Below, piece after piece: positions 5,812 through 43,443 of a DNA stretch of 43,443 nucleotides. Numbering within the stretch: the stretch's first letter is position 1; every line of letters begins with the position of its first letter. The notes below the pieces were generated by a model that was not told the origin of the DNA, did not search any database, and worked only from the letters and a program-made list of their open reading frames with translations. The position numbers were made by a program, and so were the translations under genes. Location of the stretch: the IMG/VR virus record IMGVR_UViG_2703718823_000009; one strand, written 5' to 3'. Source of the DNA: a virus. Lineage: Duplodnaviria; Heunggongvirae; Uroviricota; Caudoviricetes.

Positions 5812-6087
5812 TTACTCAATAAAGATCATTGGCTTACCGTTAAAACGTTCATGCCGTGTGACCGTCCATTGTTGTCCGTCATAAACAACGCGATCCCCGC
5901 GCCGTGGGCGGTATCCCGAAGAAAACACCACCAGAGAGACCGCAGGTCCGGACAGAGCATTCAGCTCTGCCAGTGTTTCGCCCGGGATCACAGCCATATC
6001 GACATCATTAATCGAGGCTGTCTTTCCCATCTTTCTGACCGTGATCGCATCCATACGCGCTGCCAGCCGGGAAAAGGGATCAGACAT
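5812..6087 (-). CDS. head-tail joining protein (FII position)
   Basis: Small ORF between head and tail modules; assignment by synteny only. Confidence 0.5.
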   Translation of the reverse strand: MSDPFSRLAARMDAITVRKMGKTASINDVDMAVIPGETLAELNALSGPAVSLVVFSSGYRPRRGDRVVYDGQQWTVTRHERFNGKPMIFIE

Positions 6088-6403
6088 TGAGTTTTACCGG
6101 CACTTCTTCTGCACTGGTTCCGGCATCTGCCCAGACAACCCCGACCAGCGGATCAGAGCCGCTGTTAGTCAGCTGAACTTTTCCGGACTTCAGATAAACC
6201 TTCTTACCCGTTTTCATGTCATCCGTTTTCAGTTTAGGCAGGATAAACACACCTTCGGTCATGCCGTCGCCTGTTTCACCCTGTGGAATATCGGTCAGCG
6301 CCACCGCAAAAACATCACCCACCTGCACCAGATCTCCGCTGCTGATGGCTGCACTGGCAACAATCGCCACCGTTTTTCCTTCTTCTACAAAATTCTTTGC
6401 CAT
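6080..6403 (-). CDS. putative head completion / adaptor protein
   Basis: ATG at 6403 with GGAG RBS; lies between capsid and FII-like genes; function by position only. Confidence 0.45.
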   Translation of the reverse strand: MAKNFVEEGKTVAIVASAAISSGDLVQVGDVFAVALTDIPQGETGDGMTEGVFILPKLKTDDMKTGKKVYLKSGKVQLTNSGSDPLVGVVWADAGTSAEEVPVKLNV

Positions 6404-10182: not shown

Positions 10183-12281
10183 AACCATCCTCCGGAAGTC
10201 AGCCAGGGGTTAACATCGTCAGTTACTGTTTTCTTCCGTTTTTGTTTTTTAACAGGCGTGGATACCGGTTCCGGTGTGGGTGACGGTTCGGTACTGTCCG
10301 GGACACACTCCAGCCAGGTTTCCCGGCTCGCCCACTCCGGTGCATCCGGCCAGCGGATCTTTTCGTATCCATGCAGAATGACCAGAGCCTCGGCATACAC
10401 CATCAGGTCAAAAGCTTCGTTGGCACCGCGACCCGGCTTACTCCATTTCCCGTCACTGCTCCGCTCTTCATACGTCAGTTCGTCGTAAAACCAGCTCCCC
10501 AGCCAGTCAGGGAAATGCACATAGCCGGGACCTGGCGAGTCACGCCATAACGCGTTATTCACCCGGTCTTTCAGGGCATCCGTCTGAAGAAGCCAGAGCG
10601 GTACATCACCTGCGGCCTGCGCCCGTCGGCCCGTTCGTCCGGTGTTATCAGGGAATGTACGGGTGATCAGTTTTGCGCGCCGGATGCTGTCGCCCTTAAA
10701 CAGGTAAATACGTTTACCAAGGCCATCACGACGGCAACGACGCCAGAATTTATAGGCATTATCAGTGACCCCGTCTTCACCGCCGGAGTCCACCGCCATT
10801 GCCATCAGTCGCATTTGTTGAGAAGGATCGGAGGCCAGCGGCCAGCTTTTATGAAAAACATCCGTCAGCAGGACATCCCAGTCTTCCGGATAGCTGGCCG
10901 GATCAATTCGCTGGCTCTCCCCGTCGCTGTCACCGCGCAATGACTGCGTGATGTTGTAACGATCAATAATCCAGCGTTCGCCACGGCTGCCATAGCCCGT
11001 TACCTGAACCACAAAACGGCGATGACGTCCCGCCTGCACATCCACTGTCGCCACAAGGAAATTAACGCCATCCGGCACACTGCGGGAAGGAACTGGCTCT
11101 GCCCGCTGCTCAAGCAATTCACTTTTTCGTTGCTCCATGCTGGCGCGGGGAAGATAAGGTAATCCCCAGTCGGTATTGATAACCGTCTTGAGTGTCTCTT
11201 CACTTCCGGTTGTCTCGTATTCCTGTTCTGCAGTAAGCAGTTTGTAAACGAGTTGCGAGAGTGTCTGATAAGCAGCTGCCGGCCCCTCCATCCAGAATGA
11301 CGCAATACGTGAACGCCGGGGATCACCATAACGACTGCCATCTGCATTGATGGATTCACCATCCCGTAACCAGACCCCACGTCCGTTCAGCTCGCGTTTT
11401 TGTTCAGGCAAAATCCGTCCTGAACAGGAAGGACACTGAATATAAGCCGCCTCACTTGCCAGCACAGGATCGGCAATATCACGGAAACCAGCAACCACAT
11501 CGCCGCAGGGCTGAAAATACTCACCACAGTGTGGACAGGGCCAGTACCAGCGACGGCGATCGCCACGGTTATAGAGCGACAGGATCCCCGTGGTTGGTGG
11601 AGCCTCATGCGGTGAAGTCCGTCGCCATTTCACATCCTTCACATCCCTGCCGGGGGAACTCTCCACCAGCGTCATACCACTGGACATAAATGTGGTGGTA
11701 CGTTTTGAGGCAAGAGAGAAGGCATCCCCCTCACCATCAATATCTTCCGGAAAACGGTCATAATCCGTCAGCGCCACGCATTTATAATCTGATGAAGACA
11801 TGATATTGACTGACGGCCAGCCGATTTTCAGGTAGTTGCCAGCAAGGAATGTTCTGTCATAAACGTTGTTGTCATTTTTGTTCGGACTCAGGCGACTGAC
11901 CACTTCCGGGCTGACGCGAAACGTTCTGGCGAGTCGTTTTTTGGAGTGTTCGCGGGCTTTTTCCTCCGTCATCTGAATGATCAGCATATCAGCAGGATCG
12001 CAAATCACGTTGTAAATCACCCAGCCGTCAATCAGGCCGATAGTCTTGCCGGTTCGTGCCGGGCCAACAAATATCACTGCGTCGTATTCACGCGAGGCCA
12101 GGCAGTTCATAGGCTCAATAACATACGGTGCCACCAGCGGATCCCACGGGACTGAGTTCCCTGCCCCCATGGGCACCCGCATATACTGAGCAACGGCATC
12201 AGCAACCCGCATTCGTCTCGGTGCGCGAAGGATATAACCTGAATCGGTTCGTGCTGCCTTTGCGGTTTCCTGATTCAGCAT
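10179..12281 (-). CDS. terminase large subunit (gpA-like)
   Basis: 700-aa protein with lambda gpA-like organisation; AGGAGGA RBS; start overlaps TerS stop. Confidence 0.9.
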   Translation of the reverse strand: MLNQETAKAARTDSGYILRAPRRMRVADAVAQYMRVPMGAGNSVPWDPLVAPYVIEPMNCLASREYDAVIFVGPARTGKTIGLIDGWVIYNVICDPADMLIIQMTEEKAREHSKKRLARTFRVSPEVVSRLSPNKNDNNVYDRTFLAGNYLKIGWPSVNIMSSSDYKCVALTDYDRFPEDIDGEGDAFSLASKRTTTFMSSGMTLVESSPGRDVKDVKWRRTSPHEAPPTTGILSLYNRGDRRRWYWPCPHCGEYFQPCGDVVAGFRDIADPVLASEAAYIQCPSCSGRILPEQKRELNGRGVWLRDGESINADGSRYGDPRRSRIASFWMEGPAAAYQTLSQLVYKLLTAEQEYETTGSEETLKTVINTDWGLPYLPRASMEQRKSELLEQRAEPVPSRSVPDGVNFLVATVDVQAGRHRRFVVQVTGYGSRGERWIIDRYNITQSLRGDSDGESQRIDPASYPEDWDVLLTDVFHKSWPLASDPSQQMRLMAMAVDSGGEDGVTDNAYKFWRRCRRDGLGKRIYLFKGDSIRRAKLITRTFPDNTGRTGRRAQAAGDVPLWLLQTDALKDRVNNALWRDSPGPGYVHFPDWLGSWFYDELTYEERSSDGKWSKPGRGANEAFDLMVYAEALVILHGYEKIRWPDAPEWASRETWLECVPDSTEPSPTPEPVSTPVKKQKRKKTVTDDVNPWLTSGGWL

Positions 12282-23827: not shown

Positions 23828-24793
23828 TTATCCTCTGAAACCAGGCGGAATTTCTGTATCCGGTTCAGAAATATGATTAACACAACGCTGTACAGGTGAA
23901 CGTCCCAGGCGGATGACCAGTTCGTCCCATTTTTCGCGGAGCTTTGACGGGCTCATGATGTTTTTTACCCAGAATGGATCTCGCTGAACCCGACCAAACA
24001 TTTCGCAAATTTGTCTGTGGCTTCTGCCATCCAGCATCCGCATTGTGCGCACGTCATTGGCCCAGACAGTCCAGTTAGGCTCTTTTGGTCTCATGATCTC
24101 GCCATCATCACTGGCTGCCTGTTCGTAGAGGCCCACGATCCGCCCCCAGATCCACTGCGCACACGCCAAATCCTCCCTGCTACCCCACTGGCGTTTTTTC
24201 GCACTAAACACAACCGCGTCGGAGTTCCGGGTTAAAAAATCCTGTTCAGTCGTCTGCGGGTCCGGTTGCGAAGCTTCCGGACGAAAAGTGTTTTTATTCT
24301 CTGTAGTAATCTCTGTTGTATTCTCTGTAAGATCATCAGGCCATTTTGACCCGATGACATTGGATCGTTTTGAACCAATGGAGCGTTTCATTTTGACCTC
24401 TTCCATCGTGTCATTTTGACCTGATGGAGCGGCGCATTTTGAACCGATGGATTCGCTCAATTTGCCATCATCTAAAAGCTCGCTCCCGTAGTTGATCGTG
24501 TAGAAATTGGTCATATCGCGCTTTGATTTATTGAGCTTTTCACAACGCAAAAGCCCCAGCGTTTTCAGACTTGCAAACGCGCGCTTTAACGTTGACTCTG
24601 ACCAGAATGGGAACTGTTCCAGCCATTGTTCCGTTGTGTTGTAAATCCAGCGAACACCATCACATTCCATACCGGAATTGGTATCTCTCAACCAGTAATG
24701 CAACTGCTGCAACACAATGGCTTCATTTAAGCCAATCTTCATCGCAAGCTGTGTGTTTATAACCAGTGGGCGTTCAGCAAAAAGAAGGCTCAT
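23828..24793 (-). CDS. phage replication initiation / replisome organiser protein
   Basis: N-terminal region ...LLFAERPLVINTQLAMKIGLNEAIVLQQLHYWL... resembles recalled replisome-organiser N-domains; occupies the O position downstream of cro. Confidence 0.6.
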   Translation of the reverse strand: MSLLFAERPLVINTQLAMKIGLNEAIVLQQLHYWLRDTNSGMECDGVRWIYNTTEQWLEQFPFWSESTLKRAFASLKTLGLLRCEKLNKSKRDMTNFYTINYGSELLDDGKLSESIGSKCAAPSGQNDTMEEVKMKRSIGSKRSNVIGSKWPDDLTENTTEITTENKNTFRPEASQPDPQTTEQDFLTRNSDAVVFSAKKRQWGSREDLACAQWIWGRIVGLYEQAASDDGEIMRPKEPNWTVWANDVRTMRMLDGRSHRQICEMFGRVQRDPFWVKNIMSPSKLREKWDELVIRLGRSPVQRCVNHISEPDTEIPPGFRG

Positions 24794-37343: not shown

Positions 37344-38754
37344 ATGTCCAAAAATGACCGAATGGTGGGCATCAGCCGCAGAACACTCGTTAAATCAACC
37401 GCGATAGGTTCTCTGGCGCTGGCTGCAGGCGGTTTTTCTTTACCGTTCACCCTGCGCAGTGCAGCGGCAGCGGTACAACAGGCCAGCGAAAAAGTGATCT
37501 GGGGTGCCTGTTCCGTCAACTGTGGTAGCCGCTGTGCACTTCGTCTACATGTTAAAGATAATGAAGTCACCTGGGTGGAAACTGACAACACCGGCAGCGA
37601 CGAGTATGGCAATCATCAAGTACGCGCCTGTTTGCGTGGTCGATCCATCCGTCGGCGTATTAATCATCCCGATCGCTTGAATTACCCAATGAAACGCGTG
37701 GGCAAACGCGGCGAAGGCAAATTCGAACGGATTAGCTGGGATGAAGCCCTGGATACTATCGCCAGTAGCCTGAAGAAAACCGTCGAACAATATGGCAATG
37801 AGGCTGTATATATTCAGTACTCTTCGGGGATCGTTGGCGGCAATATGACCCGCTCTTCGCCATCAGCCTCGGCGGTCAAACGCCTGATGAACTGCTACGG
37901 CGGTTCACTCAATCAGTATGGCTCCTACAGCACCGCGCAAATTTCCTGTGCCATGCCCTACACCTACGGCAGTAATGATGGCAACAGCACCACGGATATT
38001 GAAAACAGCAAGCTGGTCGTGATGTTTGGTAACAACCCGGCAGAAACCCGCATGAGCGGCGGTGGCATCACTTATCTTCTTGAAAAAGCGCGCGAGAAAT
38101 CGAACGCCAAAATGATTGCTATCGATCCGCGATATACCGATACGGCTGCTGGTCGTGAAGATGAATGGCTCCCTATTCGCCCGGGCACCGATGCCGCGCT
38201 GGTTGCGGGTATTGCCTGGGTATTGATTAACGAAAATCTCGTTGATCAACCTTTTCTCGATAAATACTGCGTCGGCTATGACGAAAAAACCTTACCCGCA
38301 GATGCACCCAAAAATAGTCACTATAAAGCCTATATTCTTGGTGAAGGTGATGATAACACAGCGAAAACGCCGCAGTGGGCTTCGCAAATTACCGGTATCC
38401 CGGTAGACCGTATCATCAAACTGGCGCGTGAAATTGGCACAGCAAAACCCGCTTATATCTGCCAGGGCTGGGGGCCGCAACGCCAGGCAAACGGCGAACT
38501 GACTGCACGCGCTATTGCTATGTTACCTATTTTGACGGGCAATGTCGGCATCAGCGGCGGAAATAGTGGCGCGCGTGAATCGACCTATACCATTACCATA
38601 GAACGCCTGCCGGTGCTGGATAATCCGGTCAAAATGTCAATCTCCTGCTTCAGCTGGACAGATGCTATCGATCATGGTCCGCAAATGACGGCAATCCGCG
38701 ACGGCGTCCGCGGCAAAGATAAACTGGATGTGCCCATTAAGTTCATCTGGAACT
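37344..38754 (+). pseudogene. ynfE: ynfE (Tat-exported molybdoenzyme) truncated after about 470 codons by insertion of foreign DNA
   Basis: Twin-arginine signal MSKNDRMVGISRRTLVK and DmsA-like sequence through ...PIKFIWN; the frame then runs 15 unrelated codons into the insert to a stop at 38801; full-length YnfE is about 800 aa (recalled). Confidence 0.8.
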
Positions 38755-38810
38755 TCAAGGACTTGAAGCGGACCCTTAGTAGGTCTGAGGTCCTGCATTG
38801 AGTCAAGGAC

Positions 38811-38843
38811 TTTGTGTCAGGCTTTGTGTCAGCCTTGTGTCAT
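38811..38843. repeat. short tandem repeat TTTGTGTCAG(G/C)C x3 near the element terminus
   Basis: ACTTTGTGTCAGGC TTTGTGTCAGCC TTGTGTCATT read directly. Confidence 0.6.
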
Positions 38844-38995
38844 TAGACGGGATGTCTAGACGGCTGGTCAGGACCCCGGTGGCCTCGGTCTGGACTTGAG
38901 GCGGGGCTATGGGGGAGAAGTCTGCTGGCTTAATGTATTAGATGGTCATTCACATTTTTCTGTCAGAAACCATCGGTCCCACTGTGAGTCCAAAC

Positions 38996-39204: not shown

Positions 39205-39229
39205 GGTCCAGACCATTGGTCCAGACCAT
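39205..39229. repeat. tandem repeat GGTCCAGACCAT x2
   Basis: GGTCCAGACCATTGGTCCAGACCAT read directly. Confidence 0.6.
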
Positions 39230-39389: not shown

Positions 39390-39629
39390 TCACAGTGACA
39401 GGCCACCACCTGAAGTCCTGCTGATATTCAGTCCAGACTTACCTCTGCTCATGGTCTTACCTCCCTCGGTCTCCTGACCTTGGGTATCGACTACAGCTTG
39501 CTGAGCGTCATCTGGAGGAGCTACAGGAGGAGCTACAGGAGGCGGGACCGAAGCCCCACCTTGAGTCCCACCACCACCTGTCAGGCCCTTGGCGATGGAC
39601 CTGAAGCCTTTACTAATGCTCTTACCCAT
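39390..39629 (-). CDS. Gly/Pro-rich small protein (79 aa), low complexity
   Basis: ORF with internal PPVAPPVAPP repeat from a 12-bp tandem DNA repeat; no clear RBS. Confidence 0.3.
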   Translation of the reverse strand: MGKSISKGFRSIAKGLTGGGGTQGGASVPPPVAPPVAPPDDAQQAVVDTQGQETEGGKTMSRGKSGLNISRTSGGGLSL

Positions 39630-39634
39630 TGGTC

Positions 39635-40621
39635 TTACGCTTCGGTCTTGGTGAACTTCAGGCGTTTGACTACAGGCAGGACGGCAGTAGCTGAGCCAGT
39701 GCCCATCTTGATGGTCGTAGCAGCTTCAGCGACAACGTACACTTTACCGAGGATTTCCAAGTCGTGGGACTGAGAGTCGCCATCACGTGAAAGGACGACC
39801 GTAATATTCTCGCCATCGTGACGGAAGCAACCGAAGCTCAGAGCCGTGAAGCGTTTAGCCAGCATGAATACACCCTTGTCTTCACCGTTGTAGTAGGCGA
39901 TGTCTGTTCCCAGCATATCGACGATAGCGTCTTCACCGGAGAAGCCTTGCTTAGCAGCCAGACGGGACAGTGCTTTCAGTTGGCTCTCATGAGCGATAAT
40001 ACCGTAGTTAGACACCTCAGAACCGAAAGAAGGCTCTGTGTTCTCATACAGAGCGTCCATGATAGCGTCTGCCTTAGCGGTCAGGCTACCAGTCAGGACA
40101 GGAAGCTCTACGGTCTTCAGCAGCTTAGAGGATTCCAGAACGTCGACCATGTGAGCGTTGATGGTACGGACCACATTCTCACAGATGTTCATAGCGTCCT
40201 GCTGAAGTGTGCCCTGAGTGAATCCGGTGGATGACTTGGCGTCCCAGAGAGTGGTCTGCTCAGAGATGAGAATAGCCTGCTCGATTGGTTCGACCACGAT
40301 TTCTTGTCCAGACGGAATGGTCACGACTTCAGGTCGCTTGCCACCACGGACAGGAACGACCACAGAGCGGTCAGCCAGAGTGTGGGCAATGATTGGGGTC
40401 GGTAAGCTGTTACGGGTCGGCAGGACTTCTACAGGGAACGGGATGTTCTCTTGAGCGTCCTTAAGTACACCGTTCAGCATAGCCTTAACCGTCTTAGCTA
40501 ACTGGAGGGCGTAGACCTGCGGGTCAGCGTTAGTCGGCAGACCTTCATTGACCTGAATGTTGTCGGTATCGGTGATGCGTACTGGCTCAATGCCAAACTG
40601 GAAAGCGTCTTTAATCGTCAT
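39635..40621 (-). CDS. hypothetical protein (328 aa), largest gene of the cassette
   Basis: ATG at 40621 with TAGGAGA RBS 9 nt upstream; no family recognised by eye. Confidence 0.55.
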   Translation of the reverse strand: MTIKDAFQFGIEPVRITDTDNIQVNEGLPTNADPQVYALQLAKTVKAMLNGVLKDAQENIPFPVEVLPTRNSLPTPIIAHTLADRSVVVPVRGGKRPEVVTIPSGQEIVVEPIEQAILISEQTTLWDAKSSTGFTQGTLQQDAMNICENVVRTINAHMVDVLESSKLLKTVELPVLTGSLTAKADAIMDALYENTEPSFGSEVSNYGIIAHESQLKALSRLAAKQGFSGEDAIVDMLGTDIAYYNGEDKGVFMLAKRFTALSFGCFRHDGENITVVLSRDGDSQSHDLEILGKVYVVAEAATTIKMGTGSATAVLPVVKRLKFTKTEA

Positions 40622-40705
40622 AATAATCAATCTCCTAAATTAGTTTAAATACTGTGAGTCCTCAAAACTGAGGAGTCCCTAACATCGGGTCAGGGACTGT
40701 GTGTC

Positions 40706-41462: not shown

Positions 41463-42221
41463 TTAGAGTCCTCCCTTAGCGCACAGACGAACCAGCTCGA
41501 CCTTGTTGGACTTAAGCCACTCGTAACCCTTGGTGAGGACCTTAAGCCCCTCCTGACCGTTATAGTGGTTATCCTGAAGACGGTAATAGCCGTTCTCCAG
41601 ACCCTTAGGATTGAAGCTGGTCATCCAGCCACCTGACGAGATGTCAAATACAGGCTGTCCTCGACCGTCCAGCTTGCGACTATAGAAGGGATTAGCTATA
41701 CGCCCTGACTTCAATACGGCATTAAGAGCCTTGGCTGATACCAGCTTTGTACCTAACCTGAAGTCGAGATTCTTAAGACACTCTGTCAGGGTGTGGCCCT
41801 GCTTCGGGTTATCCAGCTTTTCCAGCCAGTTACGGGCTATAGGCTTGAGACCCTTAAGTTCCTTGGAGTCCTGCGCCAGCGCCTTAGCTTCCGACACTTT
41901 GTCGTTACGTAAAGCGATGAAAGCACGGATGACCTTAAGGTAGAAATCAGGTGAGACCCACATCGCATAGGCAATAGCCGCCTCTTCAGTAGCCCATGTC
42001 CCCGGAGTCGAACCACCATGAGCAACATGCAAATTTGCATCTTGGTCAAGAAGCGTCCTGACGCTAGAACGCCACTGACCCGGCTCCTTAGCAGATGGAA
42101 GCTCAAGCTCTTTATGTAGCTCGTTCAGGTTCCACATACGGTCCTGATTACAGGCCCAGTGATAGCCGTCAACGATGACAGGAAGAACTACTTCATGCTT
42201 CATTAAGGGTTGAGTTGACAT
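41463..42221 (-). CDS. KilA-N domain protein (possible antirepressor/regulator)
   Basis: N-terminal ...GTWATEEAAIAYAMWVSPDFYLKVIRAF... matches the KilA-N signature as recalled; AAGGAG RBS 9 nt before ATG. Confidence 0.6.
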   Translation of the reverse strand: MSTQPLMKHEVVLPVIVDGYHWACNQDRMWNLNELHKELELPSAKEPGQWRSSVRTLLDQDANLHVAHGGSTPGTWATEEAAIAYAMWVSPDFYLKVIRAFIALRNDKVSEAKALAQDSKELKGLKPIARNWLEKLDNPKQGHTLTECLKNLDFRLGTKLVSAKALNAVLKSGRIANPFYSRKLDGRGQPVFDISSGGWMTSFNPKGLENGYYRLQDNHYNGQEGLKVLTKGYEWLKSNKVELVRLCAKGGL

Positions 42222-42568
42222 ATCGTTGTACTCCTTTTGTTATGCCTCCTGAAGTCACACCCTGAAAGCCTACTCAAGCCCCCAACGATAGGGAGACTCA
42301 CAGGCAACAGGAGACATACAGAAAGACTTGAGGTAATAAGGTCGTGTGAAGACCATGTTAACTTTTTCCTACTGGCTACTAGATAACTAGCGTGTCTCCA
42401 TATGTATAAAGGCGGGACCGCATGTCAGGACGAGCTGTAAGGACTTCCAGATGGTGAGCGGTGATAAACTTAAGCCAATGAGTAGTGAGTAGACGAGCTA
42501 CTAACAGATGACTGAAGAACGCTAACGAGCTGGAGGTCATACAGGAGGTCTGACAGAGGCGGAAGCAG

Positions 42569-42591
42569 GTCTCCTATAGTGATAGTTTAGG
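42569..42591 (-). promoter_or_regulatory. phage single-subunit RNAP promoter-like motif P2
   Basis: Minus strand CCTAAACTATCACTATA|GGAGAC (-17 to +6); compare SP6 ATTTAGGTGACACTATAGAAG and T7 TAATACGACTCACTATAGGGAGA. Confidence 0.5.
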
Positions 42592-42596
42592 GTCTG

Positions 42597-42619
42597 GTCC
42601 CCTATAGTGAGTGCTTATT
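42597..42619 (-). promoter_or_regulatory. phage single-subunit RNAP promoter-like motif P1
   Basis: Minus strand AATAAGCACTCACTATA|GGGGAC; positions -10 to +3 identical to T7 consensus (ACTCACTATAGGG), -11/-12 differ. Confidence 0.5.
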
Positions 42620-43082
42620 CCATCATCCCTTTATCACAGAGCACCTTCTTCATGTTCACAGAGGTAGCCTGAAGTACAGAGTTAACGTGGCGTAGGTAGC
42701 GAGGAGACGGGGAGCGACCCGTGATTGCCGTGTAGGAGATGTCAGTATTGCGGGAGAAGATATCGTTGGTGCCATATAAGGCAGCGAACAGGTAGGCCTT
42801 GGAGACCGGGAGTCCCACGCTGTTAGAGAGACCTGAAGGACGTGAGAGTCCTGTAAACACATCGTCTGCCCATGGGTAGGCCTCAGCAAGCTGCGTATAG
42901 GAGAGACACCCAGTCTCAATCAGCCACAGCCTCACAGACCGATTGTCGATGACCACAGGCGGCTTACCTGTACGGGCCTTAGGTTCATCATAGGTCGGCG
43001 CTGGTAGCTGCTCATGGTCGAGGTCTCCACCGAAGAAGGCCTCATTGTCGGACTCTGAGTAGCATTGAATTGTAATAGCCAT
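42615..43082 (-). CDS. hypothetical protein (155 aa), first gene of the minus-strand cassette
   Basis: ATG at 43082 with AGAGGAGG RBS 7 nt upstream; P3 motif 80 nt upstream. Confidence 0.5.
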   Translation of the reverse strand: MAITIQCYSESDNEAFFGGDLDHEQLPAPTYDEPKARTGKPPVVIDNRSVRLWLIETGCLSYTQLAEAYPWADDVFTGLSRPSGLSNSVGLPVSKAYLFAALYGTNDIFSRNTDISYTAITGRSPSPRYLRHVNSVLQATSVNMKKVLCDKGMME

Positions 43083-43156
43083 GGATGGGCCTCCTCTTAA
43101 GGTTGGCTACTTGCAGTGGGTAGCAGCGGTTTCGGTTAGATGGAGGACAGGCGTGT

Positions 43157-43179
43157 CTCTCCTAGGGTGATAGTTAAGG
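43157..43179 (-). promoter_or_regulatory. phage single-subunit RNAP promoter-like motif P3
   Basis: Minus strand CCTTAACTATCACCCTA|GGAGAG; shares an extended 28-bp match with P2. Confidence 0.4.
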
Positions 43180-43237
43180 GTCTGAGCCCAAACTTCCGAA
43201 GGTGAGGGATTATTGTAAGATACTGAAAGCTAATGGA

Positions 43238-43324
43238 AAGTTGGAGGGACCTGAGTTTAGGACGCAGTTTAAATAAGACACCAAGTTGGAGGACCTGAGT
43301 TTAGGGTGCAGTTTAAATAAGACC
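43238..43324. repeat. tandem direct repeat, 2 units of about 44 bp (iteron-like)
   Basis: AAGTTGGAGGGACCTGAGTTTAGGACGCAGTTTAAATAAGACACC followed by AAGTTGGAGGACCTGAGTTTAGGGTGCAGTTTAAATAAGACCAC. Confidence 0.7.
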
Positions 43325-43386
43325 ACAGACAGACTTAGAGTCGGACAGCCGAAGGCGAACCAGTGGGCCTATAGTCAGGAGGGATT

Positions 43387-43443
43387 ATGATTATTATCAC
43401 CCTCCATAACTTCAGTCGTAAGCGACTCGTCAGAACCGTATTG
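43387..43443 (+). CDS. start of a divergent plus-strand gene (partial)
   Basis: AGGAGGG RBS 3-4 nt before ATG at 43387; MIIITLHNFSRKRLVRTV... open to window end. Confidence 0.3.
   Translation, partial: MIIITLHNFSRKRLVRTVL

Follow-up and report, generated by a model that had tools for sequence, protein, structure and literature searches.

The DNA analyzed here is a 43,443-nucleotide (nt) stretch deposited as IMG/VR virus record IMGVR_UViG_2703718823_000009, referred to as the window over its full length. The window represents Escherichia coli chromosomal DNA with the genes speG, ynfC, ynfD and ynfE, and ynfE is interrupted by an integrated element. The UMNK88 copy of this element spans approximately 6.5 kb and carries the genes of an integrase, a 155-amino acid (aa) protein, a KilA-N protein, a 163-aa protein and a 331-aa protein together with small open reading frames (ORFs), all on one strand. 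The ORF list of the window likewise assigns every real gene of the element to the minus strand. The present study concerns the segment at positions 43083-43417, which separates the 3' end of the integrase gene from the first cargo gene, both genes being transcribed leftwards. On the gene strand, the integrase gene is followed by a hairpin, a spacer, a 44-bp unit (one to six copies in relatives), the promoter P1 and the first cargo gene, and two more phage-type promoters are located after the 155-aa gene. We tentatively propose that the segment is the helper-interface region of the ynfE element and that it wires the element to T7-like Kayfunavirus phages, an explanation to which we give somewhat less than an even chance. 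The features of the segment and its surroundings are as follows, listed in gene-strand order.

43418-43443, plus strand: terminal inverted repeat of an IS66-family (ISCro1-like) insertion sequence (IS); the window ends inside the IS
43387-43443, plus strand: spurious ORF with its ATG in the hairpin loop, entering the IS end
43378-43405, no strand: hairpin GGAGGG-ATTATGATTATTATCA-CCCTCC (28 nt, loop of 16 nt), a copy of the Kayfunavirus right-end element
43324-43377, no strand: conserved spacer of 54 nt between the last unit and the hairpin, with the mini-palindrome GCCGAAGGC at 43348-43356
43238-43323, no strand: two tandem 44-bp units with the gene-strand core TTATTTAAACTG-NN-CCCTAAACT, a copy-number-variable minisatellite
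43161-43183, minus strand: P1, Kayfunavirus-type single-subunit RNA polymerase promoter CAGACCCTTAACTATCACCCTAGG, which precedes the 155-aa ORF
42601-42615, minus strand: P2a, AGCACTCACTATAGGGG, with a T7/T3-like core, in the tandem pair at 42573-42615
42573-42587, minus strand: P2b, CCCTAAACTATCACTATAGGAG, exact Kayfunavirus consensus (15/15; 20/20 with flanks)

One connection to Kayfunavirus lies in the promoters. The K1F-like Kayfunavirus phiYIO1-1 contains 11 copies of AACTATCACTATAGG, all of which are intergenic and on the coding strand. The window contains three matches to AACTATCACTATAGG at no more than three mismatches, and all three reside within the element on the gene strand. The alignment of the element promoters with the 11 phiYIO1-1 promoters extends to approximately 20 nt. 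The P1 core CAGACCCTTAACTATCACCCTAGGAG (43161-43175) agrees with the consensus at 13 of 15 positions and departs from it in the melting region, which reads CCTAGG, not TATAGG; a P1-like variant, CACCTTAGG, is used by phiYIO1-1 in its own promoter at 10202. Transcription from P1 would start at the G at about 43162. P1 is kept on the gene strand in all ynfE-type relatives, and the promoters are confined to the gene strand in every relative examined from E. coli, Shigella, Citrobacter, Leclercia, Enterobacter, Buttiauxella and Rouxiella. In the window and at least 25 related loci, the promoter matches are intergenic and lie on the gene strand. The Kayfunavirus identity of these promoters is well supported.

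The tandem pair downstream of the 155-aa gene combines two specificities approximately 28 nt apart, a T7/T3-like promoter with the CTCACTATAGGG core and a Kayfunavirus-like promoter with AACTATCACTATAGG. Most relatives similarly pair a Kayfunavirus-type promoter with a CTCACTATAGGG-core promoter, and the pair is conserved across genera (for example, locus L035 at 6040-6110 and loci L028, L032 and L026). This arrangement suggests that the element may respond to two kinds of T7-like helper. BLAST gave no clear identification of a phage group with CTCACTATAGGG-type promoters. Other subfamilies have approximately 550 nt of conserved non-coding sequence between two promoter pairs (L024 7497-8136, L028 5510-6063, L032 5407-5908 and L035 5519-6089). 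The stretch terminates in the hairpin GGATTGTG-TTAT-CACAATTCC, which is followed by AACTTTAAG, and is a candidate for a long RNA made by the phage polymerase.

The promoters also account for part of a motif that had been noticed in the first-pass annotation, which was made from the letters of the window. GGTCTG/CAGACC does recur in the element, with 12 occurrences compared with 3.7 ± 1.9 in 300 dinucleotide shuffles, none of which reached 12. Half of the plus-strand GGTCTG copies of the window (7 of 14) fall in the element, which makes up 10.8% of its length. All four positions quoted for the motif exist. Two of them, GGTCTGAGCCC at 43180 and GGTCTGGTCCCC at 42591, are the -18 to -23 flanks of minus-strand phage promoters, the latter falling between P2a and P2b; the copies at 38782 and 38887 belong to the attL-proximal end. 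Short tandem repeats are also present at the attL end, namely three copies of CTTTGTGTCAG and two of the near-palindrome GGTCCAGACCATT (38810-38842 and 39205-39229), and GGTCTGGAC, which is related to these repeats, occurs at 38887 and 42591. The attL-end repeats could be integrase or regulator sites.

The hairpin provides another link to the same phages. The window is identical to phiYIO1-1 over 32 nt at 43370-43401, and the 28-nt hairpin matches 162 phage records of approximately 39-40 kb, an Autographiviridae-like size, in a blastn search. In the phages, the hairpin is always positioned between the phiOR-equivalent promoter and the gene 19.5 homologue, approximately 470 bp from the right end. 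An analogue occurs at the corresponding position of T7, in which GGTGAT and ATCACC form a 6-bp stem around a 14-nt AT loop, followed by TTAACTTAAGG. The folding energy of the hairpin as DNA is -6.9 to -7.2 kcal/mol (z about -2). Between phiYIO1-1 and Esher7 on one side and Pisces and Peacock on the other, the loop of the phage hairpin is inverted, with stem and flanks unchanged (L002/L003 versus L005/L006). A 50:50 flip-flop of the phage hairpin was considered and rejected, given that most tabulated phage matches seem to share one loop orientation as judged loosely from strand and position; loop inversion looks rare in the phages. According to the flanks, the plus strand of the element corresponds to the top strand of the phage.

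No other stretch of the locus is as well conserved as the block that runs from the last unit to the hairpin. Among 13 relatives, this block has a mean pairwise identity of 92%, compared with 45% to its left and 80% to its right, and it is retained where the sequence to its left is unrelated. In the Rouxiella element, GCCTTCGGCTGTC is identical and the hairpin differs; one unit core, TTATTTAAACTGTGCCCTAAAC, is kept between two phage-type promoters, the downstream one lying approximately 50 nt away. Both the Rouxiella element and the large variant of E. coli Jnd12 have a phage promoter directed through the block; in the Jnd12 variant, a phage promoter and a 158-aa ORF separate the integrase gene from the hairpin. 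As long as the ynfE-type element is integrated, the integrase gene, not a phage promoter, lies upstream of the AT-rich block, and a promoter would read into the block on a circular or concatemeric template.

The tandem repeat itself is real. Tandem Repeats Finder (TRF) reports 43238-43323 with a period of 44, 1.9 copies and 92% matches, and a separate repeat search pairs 43247-43279 with 43291-43323 at 94%. The segment is also non-coding, as had been stated, with no ORF of at least 40 aa in 43083-43417; the same interval contains no Rfam family and no sigma-70 promoter or intrinsic terminator above chance. The comparison with homologous elements that had been recommended as a check on the repeat was performed, and the unit is conserved in them. 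Its copy number is one in 17, two in 11, three in four and six in one of 34 related loci, a set that includes metagenome contigs, and a MAFFT alignment of 14 loci contains one, two or three copies. The copies are identical within an array, as in the six identical units of L040, and unit variants are lineage-specific. Because the copy number ranges from one to six and the copies are homogeneous within arrays, the unit behaves as a minisatellite, or variable-number tandem repeat, and not as a fixed iteron array. The tandem duplication in the window appears to be one minisatellite allele, and one copy appears to be enough. Each unit holds (A/T)CCTAAACT on the gene strand, which corresponds to positions -18 to -10 of the helper promoter, with the remainder of the promoter absent. 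The genes beside the unit vary between elements that share it. Integrase arm sites were rejected as an explanation of the repeats, given that the block is approximately 1.7 kb from the attP junction.

The oppositely oriented gene that was thought to start at 43387 is not a gene. Its ATG (43387-43389) lies within the loop of the hairpin at 43378-43405, what looks like its Shine-Dalgarno sequence is formed by the 5' stem arm, and the ATG is missing on that strand in most related phages, in which the loop is inverted. Because 43418-43443 is an ISCro1-like terminus, the ORF continues into an IS: the final 26 nt of the window agree throughout (26/26) with the end of the ISCro1 (IS66-like) copy annotated in L013, and matches to IS-free relatives end at 43417. 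In the IS-free UMNK88 element, the same ORF, as read by eye, spans 32 codons and overlaps the integrase gene, which appears to converge on it, at the 3' end of that gene. Since the real genes of the element are all on the minus strand, the segment is not a divergent control region, and divergent promoters are not borne out. The supposed divergent gene is therefore an artefact of a hairpin and an IS end, and the repeat beside it is polymorphic. Insertion sequences of the IS66, IS3, IS21 and IS4 families interrupt many copies of the element, often in non-coding parts (L007, L013, L014, L015 and L020), and the IS66 copy in L013 is located precisely at an ATCTGTT site. What endures of the first-pass description is a conserved cis region; the iteron-like origin, the divergent arrangement and the tie to the KilA-N protein do not.

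What does the element carry behind these promoters? Its other features are listed below from left to right.

38744-38754, no strand: attL core CATCTGGAACT within ynfE; the element begins at approximately 38755
39390-39629, minus strand: 79-aa homologue of a small T7-group virion-assembly/host-range protein (gp7.3-like), matching phiYIO1-1 gp33
39635-40630, minus strand: HK97-fold major-capsid-like protein of 331 aa (AlphaFold2 and Foldseek)
41463-42221, minus strand: KilA-N domain protein (PF04383 at 1.3e-9), a variable module
42615-43082, minus strand: first cargo gene (155 aa, from the ORF list), downstream of P1

By sequence, the 331-aa protein matches no known family. A shallow-alignment AlphaFold run was uninformative (predicted local distance difference test score, pLDDT, 40), but a deep alignment (A3) gave an AlphaFold2 model with the HK97 fold and a pLDDT of 85.4, whose best Foldseek matches in the PDB are the capsids of phi29, T5, HRP29 and Kp9 and encapsulins (E ~1e-9). 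Homology to the Kayfunavirus capsid protein by sequence was rejected, as similarity is absent. A profile search retrieves distant relatives of the 331-aa protein, some with C-terminal immunoglobulin-like domains. The 79-aa protein shares 40% identity with phiYIO1-1 gp33 (E 6e-15) and also matches phrog_1320 (1.8e-11) and, weakly, PF11653; its phage counterpart is encoded just upstream of the portal gene in phiYIO1-1. The 155-aa protein has close homologues only and belongs to no Pfam, PHROG or PADLOC family. The KilA-N position is filled by AP2, Rha or other genes in some relatives. No terminase, portal, tail or lysis gene is found in the 6.5-kb form, PADLOC detects no known defence system, and Pfam and PHROG reveal no Rep-like or replication-initiator family among the element proteins.

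A tyrosine integrase and approximately eight small genes are packed into 6.5 kb, the 11-nt core CATCTGGAACT is duplicated at both junctions in UMNK88, and ynfE is split in all carriers. The intergenic block is found in 115 of 5426 complete E. coli genomes, and relatives of the 331-aa gene occur in Shigella, Citrobacter, Leclercia, Enterobacter, Buttiauxella and Rouxiella. A larger variant (13-15 kb) is exemplified by Jnd12 (L020 24337-39994), where approximately 15.6 kb, including an IS21 copy, occupy the same site in ynfE and additionally encode a gp16-like SLT transglycosylase, an HNH endonuclease and a 455-aa protein. Shigella flexneri SFBU1023 harbors two family members at separate chromosomal sites (L027 and L033), of which only the ynfE-type member carries the unit-hairpin block. 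By comparison with UMNK88, positions 1-35000 of the window hold host genes and a Qin-like defective prophage, and in this part TRF finds several short tandem repeats (for example, 24368-24451, period 23). The element has the anatomy of a phage satellite with a virulent T7-like phage as its helper. Mageeney et al. 2020 (PMC7192596) listed an integrative element in ynfE.

On the basis of these observations, the proposed helper interface would operate as follows. The host polymerase should not recognize phage-type promoters, and the cargo would be expressed mainly once an infecting K1F-like phage supplies its own RNA polymerase. P1 would drive the 155-aa ORF, and the cargo so induced would comprise the 155-aa protein, the KilA-N regulator, the 163-aa protein, the HK97-fold capsid protein and the gp7.3-like virion protein. 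The promoters thus point to a probable dependence of expression on the helper polymerase. The unit-spacer-hairpin block would be a cis site at which the DNA machinery of the helper acts on the element, imitating the phage's own region from phiOR to gene 19.5. The block may be used for replication from phage promoters beside AT-rich DNA, for recognition in maturation or packaging, or for both. In T7, promoters that adjoin AT-rich DNA function as origins, and sequences near phiOR at the right end take part in the processing of concatemers. Plasmids with a T7 promoter/origin and the concatemer junction were reportedly replicated and packaged by T7 in work by Chung and Hinkle in 1990. We infer a cis-use of the block by helper machinery because of its conservation, its identity with phage DNA and this T7 biology. 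The block could be called an origin only in the T7 sense, as a phage promoter with AT-rich DNA that a helper replisome would use. The link to a specific helper is threefold and consists of helper-type promoters, the helper hairpin and a gp7.3 homologue. The segment looks like the interface at which a virulent phage turns on, and probably propagates, a small capsid-encoding satellite. We consider a more far-reaching version possible but doubtful, in which the segment is the cis heart of an undescribed family of capsid-encoding mini-satellites of virulent T7-like coliphages, which would be switched on directly by the helper polymerase via tandem promoters of two specificities and replicated and packaged through mimicry of the phage right end, with the 44-bp array tuning the interaction.

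Several observations weigh against the helper-interface proposal, particularly against the part assigned to the block. The copy number of the unit behaves as expected of neutral slippage. The hairpin is identical to the Kayfunavirus hairpin beside phiOR, but, judged by its flanks, it is opposite in orientation to the element genes and promoters, and integrated ynfE-type elements have no phage promoter that reads into it. The hairpin has no established role in the phages themselves, and in a genome-wide insertion screen of T7, most intergenic sites close to the ends of the genome proved dispensable (PMC11482910). Other subfamilies have a different hairpin, and the idea that it was copied from another phage group was rejected, as it has no phage match. 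The element shows no similarity to the phage terminal repeat. ATCTGTT, a class-II T7 pause signal that occurs once (42497-42503, minus strand) downstream of the tandem promoters, was rejected as a mimic of the concatemer junction given that it is not conserved in relatives. A 13-mer, AGTCAAGGACTTT, common to the left end of the element and the right end of the phage was likewise set aside, as matches of 12-14 nt are at chance, with approximately 18 expected. Extrachromosomal or virion-derived copies were not found in the collections searched (Logan, ENA, metagenome contigs and IMG/VR). Element-sized contigs were rejected as circular or packaged DNA: those from Logan and ENA are chromosomal or repeat-bounded, and metagenome contigs of 6.7-6.9 kb are assembly bubbles with ynfE flanks and not circles. 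The sole IMG/VR match is a contig of 73 kb.

Could the promoter be the only functional part? The array would then be a minisatellite that arises by neutral slippage, and the hairpin would be either an element of the integrase 3' untranslated region that ends or stabilizes the mRNA or a passive scrap of phage DNA. We regard this explanation as rather unlikely, although it accommodates the range of one to six copies, the identity of copies within arrays and the single copy in half of the loci. It is also consistent with the position of the hairpin, approximately 77 nt downstream of the integrase stop codon in UMNK88, with the two loop orientations among phages, which imply that the loop sequence may matter little, and with the T7 insertion screen. 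However, it does not predict that the block is the best-conserved part of the locus or that the unit core is kept across genera at a position that shifts relative to the integrase gene and is constant relative to the phage promoter. Moreover, a T-run or other terminator features are absent, and without selection or recent exchange, an exact 32-nt identity with a phage is difficult to maintain. Another view, in which the whole element is the decaying remnant of a temperate T7-like prophage and the segment is a functionless fossil, draws on the phage-type promoters, the capsid-fold and gp7.3-like genes, the larger variant with its gp16-like transglycosylase and HNH genes and the frequent IS insertions, including the one in the window. 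We consider it improbable in view of the compact gene order, intact ORFs and module swapping in 115 E. coli genomes and six other genera, the exact preservation of the promoters and a capsid protein that is unrelated in sequence to that of Kayfunavirus.

The other two alternatives assign a specific function to the repeat. According to the first-pass annotation, the units constitute an iteron-type origin or a binding array for an element regulator such as the KilA-N protein, placed between divergent promoters. The direct repeats do have a fixed phase of 44-45 bp and, in TTTAAATAA, an AT-rich core; homologous elements retain the unit, and GGTCTG is over-represented in the element. Nevertheless, we judge this highly unlikely. 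Iterons were taken to be several short repeats (about 17-22 bp) kept in related replicons, and this does not describe a 44-bp unit for which a single copy is commonest. Furthermore, the element has no initiator gene, and neither an opposite gene nor a divergent promoter exists, with sigma-70-like sites not above chance. Because the unit is present in many relatives in which AP2, Rha or other genes take the place of KilA-N, the KilA-N protein is not its obligate partner. In a different scheme, the units are half-promoters, (A/T)CCTAAACT without the initiation half, that bind the helper polymerase without firing and either feed the weak P1 60 nt downstream or soak up polymerase and thereby interfere with the phage. 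This scheme explains why a 9-10-nt match to the upstream half of the consensus occurs in every unit, including that of Rouxiella, why the array is always just upstream of a phage promoter on the same strand and why P1 could depart from the consensus in its melting region. In T7, however, promoter positions -9 to -5 are needed for specific binding, and these positions are absent from the unit. The match is also short and was recognized post hoc, a base is missing in one lineage (CCCTAACT), and the phage genome has no such half sites at special places. We therefore give the half-promoter scheme little credence as well.

The significance of the locus rests mostly on the context uncovered around it and not on the duplication. 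Most known satellites of strictly lytic phages come from Vibrio (PLE, for phage-inducible chromosomal island-like element, and PICMI, for phage-inducible chromosomal minimalist island), and T7-like phages are widely used in therapy and biotechnology. If the helper-interface proposal is true, the element would represent a new route of phage parasitism and gene transfer and could explain strain-specific failure of K1F-like therapeutic phages. It would also be a natural case of orthogonal-polymerase gene control in which the helper polymerase is the induction signal. In addition, the unit-hairpin block offers a site at which to probe T7-group DNA recognition near the right end, which is still poorly defined. 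Full-text literature searches returned no satellite of T7-like or Kayfunavirus phages, although subscription papers were not covered and a prior description is possible.

The closest parallels to the block itself lie in the T7 right end, which contains phiOR and a secondary origin and likewise places a promoter near a short AT-loop hairpin followed by TAACTT. T7 sequences needed for concatemer processing were reportedly defined by Chung, Nardone and Hinkle in 1990. Unlike this right end, the element lacks terminal-repeat homology and a conserved pause site, carries its hairpin in inverted orientation to its promoters and has a 44-bp unit without phage counterpart. The iteron origins of plasmids and phages share with the segment phased direct repeats in non-coding DNA and an AT-rich segment, but they are unlike it in the 44-bp length of the unit, its one to six homogenized copies, of which one is commonest, and the lack of an initiator gene.

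Among integrated elements, the ynfE element of Mageeney et al. 2020 (PMC7192596), a candidate for 'regulated gene integrity', is an insertion of the same kind that bears an integrase and splits ynfE; the accessible text gives the target gene only, and phage promoters, a capsid gene and the repeat go unmentioned there. The capsid-forming phage-inducible chromosomal islands (cfPICIs) of Enterobacteria (bioRxiv 10.1101/2022.09.08.507074) resemble the element as integrated satellites with their own HK97-fold capsid, for which the helper supplies the rest of the particle. They are larger, encode a full head and packaging module and exploit temperate helpers, whereas the ynfE element has 6.5 kb, lacks terminase and portal genes and is connected to a virulent T7-like phage by the promoters of that phage's RNA polymerase. 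PICMIs and PLEs (PMC10803314; PMC7145576) are likewise small integrase-bearing islands that respond to lytic phage infection, and PICMIs also have approximately 6 kb and minimal gene content. These islands differ in their Vibrio hosts and helpers and, for PICMI, in the lack of a capsid gene, and their abstracts do not report the use of promoters of a helper single-subunit polymerase. Thus, the ynfE element shares the satellite logic of cfPICIs, PICMIs and PLEs and differs from them in helper type, size and lack of packaging genes and, above all, in its use of helper polymerase promoters.

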